From Octopus vulgaris (lineage: Eukaryota), in NCBI GenBank assembly GCA_951406725.2, contig OX597822.1, positions 75,888,001 through 75,952,000 of the forward strand: DNA of 64,000 nt, read 5' to 3'. The notes under the pieces were generated by a model, which made no database searches, was not told the origin of the DNA, and saw nothing but the letters and a program-made list of their open reading frames with translations. Every line of letters begins with the position of its first letter. Position 1 is the first letter of the stretch. This document shows positions 4,448 to 5,406 of this stretch, piece after piece. Both the position numbers and the translations under genes were made by a program.

Positions 4448-4773
4448 GGGTAAAGACCCCCTTCGGTCATGAATGACCATGGGATTGCACCTAGAAAGTT
4501 ACCTTCCTAGATACAAGTCCGGGCAAGGTTGTTTATGGAAGGCCAGCAGTCGCCCATGCATACCAGCCTCCCCTCTCCACGCCACCAGTGTTATCCAAGG
4601 GAAAGACAAAGGTCGATACAGCTTGGCACCAGTGACGTCGCAACTCATTTCTACAGCTGAGTGAACTGGAGCAACGTGAAATAAAGTGCCTTGCTCGAGA
4701 ACACAACACGCAGCCCGGTCCGGGATTCGAGCCCACAACCTCACGATCGTAAGCTCGACGCTCTAACGACTGA

Positions 4774-4778
<5 letters not shown>
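4448..4778 (-). mobile_element. tRNA-derived SINE (family C) between (TA)n tracts
   Basis: Head TGGCTCAGTCGTTAGAGCG...GCTCGAATCCC (A and B boxes). A closely similar copy is at 62175-62485. Confidence 0.9.
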
Positions 4779-4850
<72 letters not shown>

Positions 4851-4983
4851 CGGAGATGTACTTAGCGAGTGACTTGATCTGAGATCGCGTGCTGGAACAA
4901 AGACATTTGCAGCGTGGAAGGTGTATATAAGTCATTTAAGAAACACACAAAACCGTTAGATTCACTTCAACATTTAAATTTAA

Positions 4984-5034
4984 TTTGTCAAAATATTTTC
5001 GTCGCTTTGAGACCGCGACCTGCTCACTGACAAA
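4984..5034 (-). ncRNA. Hammerhead-like motif with swapped G3-C8 core
   Basis: TTTGTCA-GTGAGCA-G-GTCGC-GGTCTCAAA-GCGAC-GAA-AATATT-T-TGACAAA: 7 bp stem I, 5 bp stem II, palindromic stem III. Lies in a ~200 bp element (4850-5055) abutting (TA)n. Confidence 0.6.
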
Positions 5035-5406
5035 ACTTCGTGCAGCACGAAGTTTCATTTAGACACTGCATTGGATCTGTATTACAAAGAAGATTGTGTC
5101 AGAGACCGCGCTGCAGATATTGCGATGAAAATGTTTACGACATGTTAATGTTTGCTAACATGCGCTTCCCACGCTACGATTGTGTCAGATTCAGCACATG
5201 ACCTCATTTTAATCACTCATCCGATAATTATACACACGTTCGATTTCTTTTCTTTCTTAGGACTTTTCCGTTTCTCCTTGCCGACGAAGGGCTGTGCACG
5301 AAACATCAAAAACTCTCTCTTCTTATTGTACGTCAAGCTAATACATTCTTTGTGCATGACCTGTTGTTGTTTGTTATTGTTGATTTTATTATGCTTTGTT
5401 TGAAAT

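Follow-up and report, generated by a model that had tools for sequence, protein, structure and literature searches.

A hammerhead motif in Octopus vulgaris carries G3-C8 in place of the canonical C3-G8 core pair, and the swap is family-wide, being fixed in the lineage of elements to which the motif belongs. The motif lies in a stretch of 64,000 nucleotides of contig OX597822.1 (positions 75,888,001 to 75,952,000; hereafter the window), in the terminal repeat (pLTR) of an RT/GIY-YIG element, that is, an EN+ Penelope-like element (PLE). We favor the interpretation, to which we assign a probability of about 0.58, that G3-C8 replaced C3-G8 in a leader hammerhead that is predicted to cut only weakly, likely as a dimer or together with an element protein, and that the copy in the window is itself likely inert.

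A minimal type I hammerhead with an inverted 3:8 pair

The motif and its parts are as follows.

4984..5034, minus strand: minimal type I hammerhead motif with stems I and II and a palindromic stem III (from sequence, folding and descriptor)
5021..5027, minus strand: core strand G3-U4-G5-A6-G7-C8-A9, 3:8 pair swapped, with G3 at 5027, C8 at 5022 and A9 at 5021 (from sequence and family counts)
5001..5019, minus strand: stem II of 5 bp with a G10.1-C11.1 closing pair and a 9-nt loop (from sequence, folding and alignment)
4991..4997, minus strand: A15.1...U16.1 palindrome AAUAUU and U17, with the predicted cut at 4991/4990 (from sequence and hammerhead numbering)

Read on the minus strand, stem I consists of seven Watson-Crick pairs between UUUGUCA (5034-5028) and UGACAAA (4990-4984), and stem II of GUCGC (5019-5015) paired with GCGAC (5005-5001). 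A single extra G at 5020, which the first-pass annotation had passed over, separates A9 from G10.1. After stem II come GAAA (5000-4997), AAUAUU (4997-4992) and U17 at 4991, so that the triplet is UUU. The first-pass annotation had described just these stems (7 bp, 5 bp and AAUAUU), the core GUGAGCA and the UUU triplet, and all of them are borne out on the minus strand at 4984-5034; its further claim of a double change that preserves the 3:8 pair holds as well, G3 at 5027 and C8 at 5022 being Watson-Crick partners. The conserved nucleotides of PLE minimal type I hammerheads (U4, G5, A6 and A9; G12, A13 and A14; A15.1-U16.1; H17) are all present, as are the hallmarks of metazoan PLE hammerheads, namely the extra base after A9, G10.1-C11.1 and the palindromic stem III. 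Only the canonical C3 and G8 are absent, G3 and C8 standing in their place with the pairing kept. Position 7 is G in the window copy, a minority letter; the family has A7, and its common core is GUGAACA.

In isolation the 51 nt fold into stems I and II at -13.8 kcal/mol (z -2.41), a stability reached by 6 of 200 shuffled sequences. A descriptor that allows any Watson-Crick 3:8 pair gave one match in the window and none in 300 resampled windows. A chance match, or two decay mutations in one old copy, is hardly credible in view of those 300 windows and of the 6,292 family matches described below, against none for reversed controls. With 26 nt more of upstream sequence, a fold-back at 5033-5055 is predicted to capture the 5' strand of stem I, and the window copy is probably inert. 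The dimer that the palindromic stem III implies was computed at -25.4 kcal/mol for the double hammerhead versus -24.8 kcal/mol for two monomers, a gain of 0.6 kcal/mol, which makes dimer formation possible but, unaided, not favored.

At the gathering threshold Rfam reported no hammerhead in the window, its sole match being a U6 snRNA (63239-63344, plus strand, 107.9 bits). This miss weighs little, since Rfam also passed over a motif with a canonical core at 50550. The latter belongs to a palindromic insertion at 50457-50613 whose core is a canonical CUGAUGA, whose stem II is very short and whose stem III is longer; it represents a different repeat, one also found fused behind a family copy at another locus (L130). 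The first-pass annotation had seen the same geometry at 50535 as beside our motif; the likeness is one of kind only, as the arms there are of about 78 bp with five mismatches and belong to that other repeat, versus an 11-bp arm here. A perfect 17-bp inverted repeat with a 3-nt loop lies nearby, at 50762-50798.

The swap across the family

The first-pass annotation had proposed to ask whether GUGANCA is fixed among genomic copies. We counted the 3:8 states with patterns that shared identical flanks and for which reversed controls gave no matches. G3-C8 accounted for 6,292 of 6,902 matches (91%), the rest being 209 without G3 and 401 with G3 but without C8. Among the first 100 of the 209 there was one C3-G8 match, from a sister family, and there were 12 single changes of G3 to C (about 25 copies by extrapolation). 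The opposite single change, G3-G8, made up 35 of the first 100 of the 401 (about 140 copies), and is thus several times commoner; it also occupied 12 of 22 arms in twelve C16 loci that had been chosen for long copies. This excess, together with the C16 arms, indicates that elements with unpaired cores multiplied too. C16 is also where 56 of the 106 copies extending upstream of the AGATG site discussed below are found, on a sequence of 58.8 Mb, or about 2% of the genome; they cluster at 1-15 and 43-56 Mb, and G3-G8 is the state of about half of the arms fetched from it.

The same state prevails in the subfamilies counted. G3-C8 dominates the matches listed for the GGAWTTTT subfamilies (2,672 matches), the GTCKGAAA subfamily (300 matches, with G8 in 3 of the first 100) and the old, CpG-decayed subfamily GGTTTYAAA (608 matches, with G8 in 4 of the first 100), and young copies beside open RT/GIY-YIG frames, such as L195, retain it. 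In Logan contigs from 4 of the 24 listed runs, bearing four other organism labels, no alternative letter reached 2% at 5027 or 5022, and position 5023 differed from the window in about 98%. Fixation among copies reflects the source elements and not selection on the copy in the window.

Selection may to some degree act on the hammerhead fold, as far as alignments can tell. In seven subfamily profiles, built from 136 of 166 extracted copies of subfamilies that are close to each other, 2 of 41 core and stem positions vary; in the rest of the leader 13 of 75 do (one-sided p = 0.047). The two are position 8, which varies in a set where C16 is oversampled, and an A-to-G change that keeps a U-G pair. 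GAAA, U16.1, U17 and both stems are intact across subfamilies, and loop 2 differs between them. Covariation in the stems consists mostly of one-sided G-U changes, with one double change each in stems I and II.

A terminal repeat of a Penelope-like element

The surroundings of the motif in the window are as follows.

4848..5047, minus strand: stub of the terminal repeat (pLTR) of a Penelope-like element, truncated at its 5' end; it terminates in the family "tail" beside a (TA)n tract (from identity to the element L207)
4864..4935, minus strand: degraded first 24 codons of the element reading frame (tblastn, 71% to the L207 N-terminus)
5033..5055, no strand: junction of a fold-back whose arms are 11 bp, what is left of the inverted 5' copy that such insertions typically have (from sequence and from longer inverted arms there in other copies)
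5053..5071, plus strand: 19-nt piece of the element coding region in opposite orientation, 18/19 letters with one extra T (also in L185, L196, L197, L205 and L207)

The stub (4847-5047) is 85% identical to the pLTR of the tandem element L207. As a dispersed repeat (4848 to about 5050) it gave 2,979 first-look candidates, the best 40 of which were scored, at 91-94%, and the 27-mer behind the motif has 9,090 exact matches in the genome. The window holds a single solo stub, and not the head-to-tail tandem of short hammerhead units by which non-LTR retrozymes are recognized. The fold-back that the first-pass annotation had placed upstream of the motif is there; it spans 5033-5055 with 11-bp arms, and the 21-mer quoted for it lies at 5034-5054 rather than at 5033-5053. 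The 19-nt coding piece is likely part of the inverted arm.

The reading frame begins about 55 nt behind the predicted cut, which places the hammerhead in the untranslated leader. We rejected coding constraint as an explanation for the motif, given that position of the frame and the fact that short upstream frames differ between subfamilies. On the minus strand at about 4500-4775 there is a further repeat with a tRNA-like end beside the (TA)n tract, likely a SINE by its appearance; ARAGORN found no tRNA within the window, this repeat included. Short matches of 80-83% to the tail region of the family, at 5167-5206 and 51269-51309, are probably older related repeats.

Long copies adjoin a frame that encodes RT motifs, a CX3CxxC linker and, at its C-terminal end, a GIY-YIG domain. 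In L195 this is a single open frame of 1,025 codons, whose GIY-YIG domain scored 25.4 bits (cut-off 22.6); Pfam gave no RT match in the L195 frame, and the motifs DKSG and YVDD are visible in its sequence. The best named homolog of the frame is an Octopus vulgaris protein (57%) named as an RT-domain protein. L207 is a partial tandem, in which the terminal repeat runs on into the open reading frame with the ATG behind the hammerhead, and L195 shows an inversion. The linker of L195, CQSNCAVC, lies between RT and EN and conforms to the CX2-5CxxC pattern of the Neptune clade. The tail was present in 52 of 100 arms, and 43 ended at the inner site. Inverted arms, a one-sided tail and (TA)n targets fit the EN+ Penelope-like insertions described by Craig et al. 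(2021, PMC8557442), and the octopus element further resembles EN+ PLEs with a cysteine linker (Neptune/Nematis type) in that source in having one frame with RT motifs, CX3CxxC and a GIY-YIG domain at the C terminus, as well as partial tandems, an inverted 5'-truncated copy and microsatellite targets; its placement as Neptune/Nematis type is by motifs, not by a tree.

Two loci with family copies stood out for other features. At G000:C1:6.245-6.254 Mb two adjacent intronless open frames (L049 and L050) each lie beside a family copy, and presumably resemble dCMP deaminase. At G000:C2:206158695-206186227 (L285) 13 listed matches are spaced mostly at about 2.18 kb; they mark a tandem array, and its repeat unit includes, besides other DNA, a palindromic insertion of the family.

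Relatives and the direction of the change

A pattern with C3 and G8 gave 32 matches versus 2 for its control and uncovered a sister pLTR family with the same stems, the 3:8 state of whose copies is set by the pattern that selected them. Most of the 30 sister loci shown continue into the same layout of stem II, GAAA and stem I. A profile of the sister sequence downstream of the motif, with the motif itself excluded, gave scores above 0 bits for 68 of 151 copies of the family versus 2 of 1,510 shuffled sequences, with a best score of only 10 bits, and upstream of one sister copy (L215) lies the remnant of a GIY-YIG domain. Among related elements at 31 metagenome loci, a motif stands behind the frame in 5, and all 5 are C3-G8. 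Stem I is 7 bp in the G3-C8 motif versus about 4 bp in the C3-G8 sisters. In 24 aligned rows, chosen by state, positions 3 and 8 read CG in 17, GC in 6 and otherwise in 1. Since both the homologous sister family and the five motif-bearing distant relatives are C3-G8, the G3-C8 swap is likely derived, as judged from these comparisons.

The standing of G3-G8 is less sharply drawn. On a mostly open tree of 185 pLTR rows, with positions 3 and 8 masked, G8 requires 19 changes, and G8 copies are scattered. The median identity to the nearest neighbor was 0.952 for G8 copies (n = 15) versus 0.982 for C8 copies (n = 25), in a reference set that is itself heavy in C8. The old subfamily, with 4 of 100, is not clearly richer in G8 than the family overall (about 2%).

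Copy ends suggest uncut RNA as the usual template

For a census of copy ends we treated as arms the first 100 C1 matches of the downstream 27-mer. Only 1 of these 100 arms starts exactly at the predicted cut, and 4 start within 3 nt of it. The whole core is kept in 79, and 39 end within eight positions around the sequence AGATG. Of 25 arms that stop at AGATG, 14 have a G in place of the C or T of the element, as do 25 of 43 arms in a wider set; about half of the AGATG-stop arms abut an inverted arm that could supply the extra G, and two rows are duplicates. This extra G may be a copied cap. The pile-up at AGATG likely marks a capped start site. Addition of untemplated G and T has been described for the RT of another retroelement (PMC13000458). 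The AGATG site, TTTCTCAG with CTAAC before it, also resembles a 3' splice site and is a candidate for one; no shared upstream exon was seen for that reading. If AGATG is taken as the RNA start, G3 occupies +23, the predicted cut precedes +59, the ATG sits at +115, and the two copy ends lie at +146 and +206. Most copies were likely made from uncut RNA.

Relation to known hammerheads

The octopus motif resembles the minimal type I hammerheads of metazoan PLEs (Cervera and de la Pena 2014, PMC4209133) in its place in the pLTR, in the extra base between 9 and 10.1, in G10.1-C11.1, in a palindromic stem III that implies a dimer, and in its thousands of solo copies and opposite-strand pairs. It departs from them, which are C3-G8 with a U3-A8 variant in Schistosoma, in its G3-C8 core, its longer stem I (7 bp) and a cleavage that is predicted only. 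The natural U3-A8 covariation (Perreault et al. 2011, PMC3088659) is likewise a double change that keeps a Watson-Crick 3:8 pair. U3-A8, however, arises by two transitions that keep the pyrimidine-purine order, whereas G3-C8 arises by two transversions and, unlike U3-A8, places a pyrimidine at the nucleotide that contributes its 2'-OH to catalysis.

The first-pass annotation had given as established that the swap partly rescues engineered hammerheads, and partial rescue by the C3G/G8C double mutant is indeed documented (Frangieh et al. 2024, PMC11167929; Roberts et al. 2023, PMC9901934; reviewed in PMC8495972). C3G/G8C is identical to the octopus swap, and the hammerheads rescued include that of the green anole PLE; what was engineered there is the dominant natural state here, in a genome of 2.8 Gb. 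In a full pairwise screen the G:C swap was the only rescuing double mutant in that part of the core (PMC9901934). In the literature within reach of our search, which stopped short of figures and some supplements such that a prior report is possible, we found no natural G3-C8 hammerhead and G3-C8 only as a laboratory mutant; the passages that our search terms found in the supplement of PMC4209133 contain CUGA cores only. Natural U3-A8 and laboratory rescue by G3-C8 are known, and, within that search, a family-wide natural G3-C8 is new here.

What the swapped hammerhead may do

For the anole element, RT is reported to start at two internal sites that define the tail, with uncut RNA as the main substrate, and the hammerhead to cut only with protein present, cutting being dispensable for insertion (PMC11167929). 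We propose that transcription likely starts at AGATG, about 23 nt before G3. By analogy with the anole element, the octopus RT would then prime internally, at two RNA sites some 146 and 206 nt downstream, and would copy back through the uncut hammerhead to the 5' end of the RNA. The product would be the thousands of stubs of about 200 bp, frequently with an inverted arm. Since insertion works without cutting, a ribozyme that is slow and conditional would be tolerated, and the restored 3:8 pair would keep some cleavage, which may trim tandem read-through RNA or remove the capped leader. A bolder version, which we put forward only tentatively, is that the lineage crossed a near-dead G3-G8 state, a minor form that is still multiplying, and then fixed the inverted pair, and that a natural working but tuned-down ribozyme decides whether the capped leader is retained.

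The missing cut-site footprint bears on two other readings. It would be expected if the motif had no useful cutting rate, being a relic or a fold kept as an internal promoter or for protein binding, with C8 fixed by drift or for another role. We consider this somewhat unlikely, yet it draws on several observations: G3-G8 copies multiplied; relative to the likely start the core spans +23 to +29, a region in which Penelope carries internal promoter elements (PMC2377424); PLEs of the Naiad type thrive although they lack canonical hammerheads (PMC8557442); and G8C alone is reported to cost about 10^5-fold in activity, with only partial rescue. What tells against it is that the change fixed at position 8, out of three possible ones, is that which restores a Watson-Crick pair, that GAAA, U16.1, U17 and both stems have stayed intact across subfamilies, and that the fixed swap is the sole rescuing core double mutant in the full pairwise screen; on this last ground we favor residual activity over a dead relic. 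Missing cut-site ends are also predicted if the ribozyme, aided by its longer stem I, is efficient in vivo and acts as a brake, such that cut RNAs lose their capped leader and only uncut ones leave copies. A stem I of 7 bp, against about 4 bp in the C3-G8 sisters, would suit such a role, and cleavage 59 nt past the likely start would part the cap from the reading frame. An efficient brake is nonetheless improbable, as minimal hammerheads of metazoans are poor cutters in vitro even when they have C3-G8 (PMC4209133), and as the 3' product of cutting retains both RT start sites and should yield copies that start at the cut, which are rare. The first-pass interpretation stands in part. Its claim that the double change is unlikely to be random decay is supported, the swap being fixed in 91% of 6,902 matches, kept across subfamilies and covarying with the C3-G8 sister family; but the fixation is that of source elements, the G3-G8 half-swap multiplied, and copy ends lack a footprint of cutting.

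Implications

The C3-G8 pair was inferred from structure and from the rescue of mutants, and the only natural covariation that we found in print is U3-A8. With its thousands of G3-C8 copies, its minority of G3-G8 and its C3-G8 sisters, the family offers a natural compensatory series open to direct assay. The family also bears on the role of hammerheads in Penelope-like elements, in that the ends of its copies suggest that the RNA used as template usually carries an uncut ribozyme. Finally, the standard "cuganga" descriptor used in PMC8557442 would miss a G3-C8 hammerhead. If G3-C8 hammerheads do work, families that carry them would escape searches for CUGANGA, which could explain some of the PLEs that are said to lack hammerheads.
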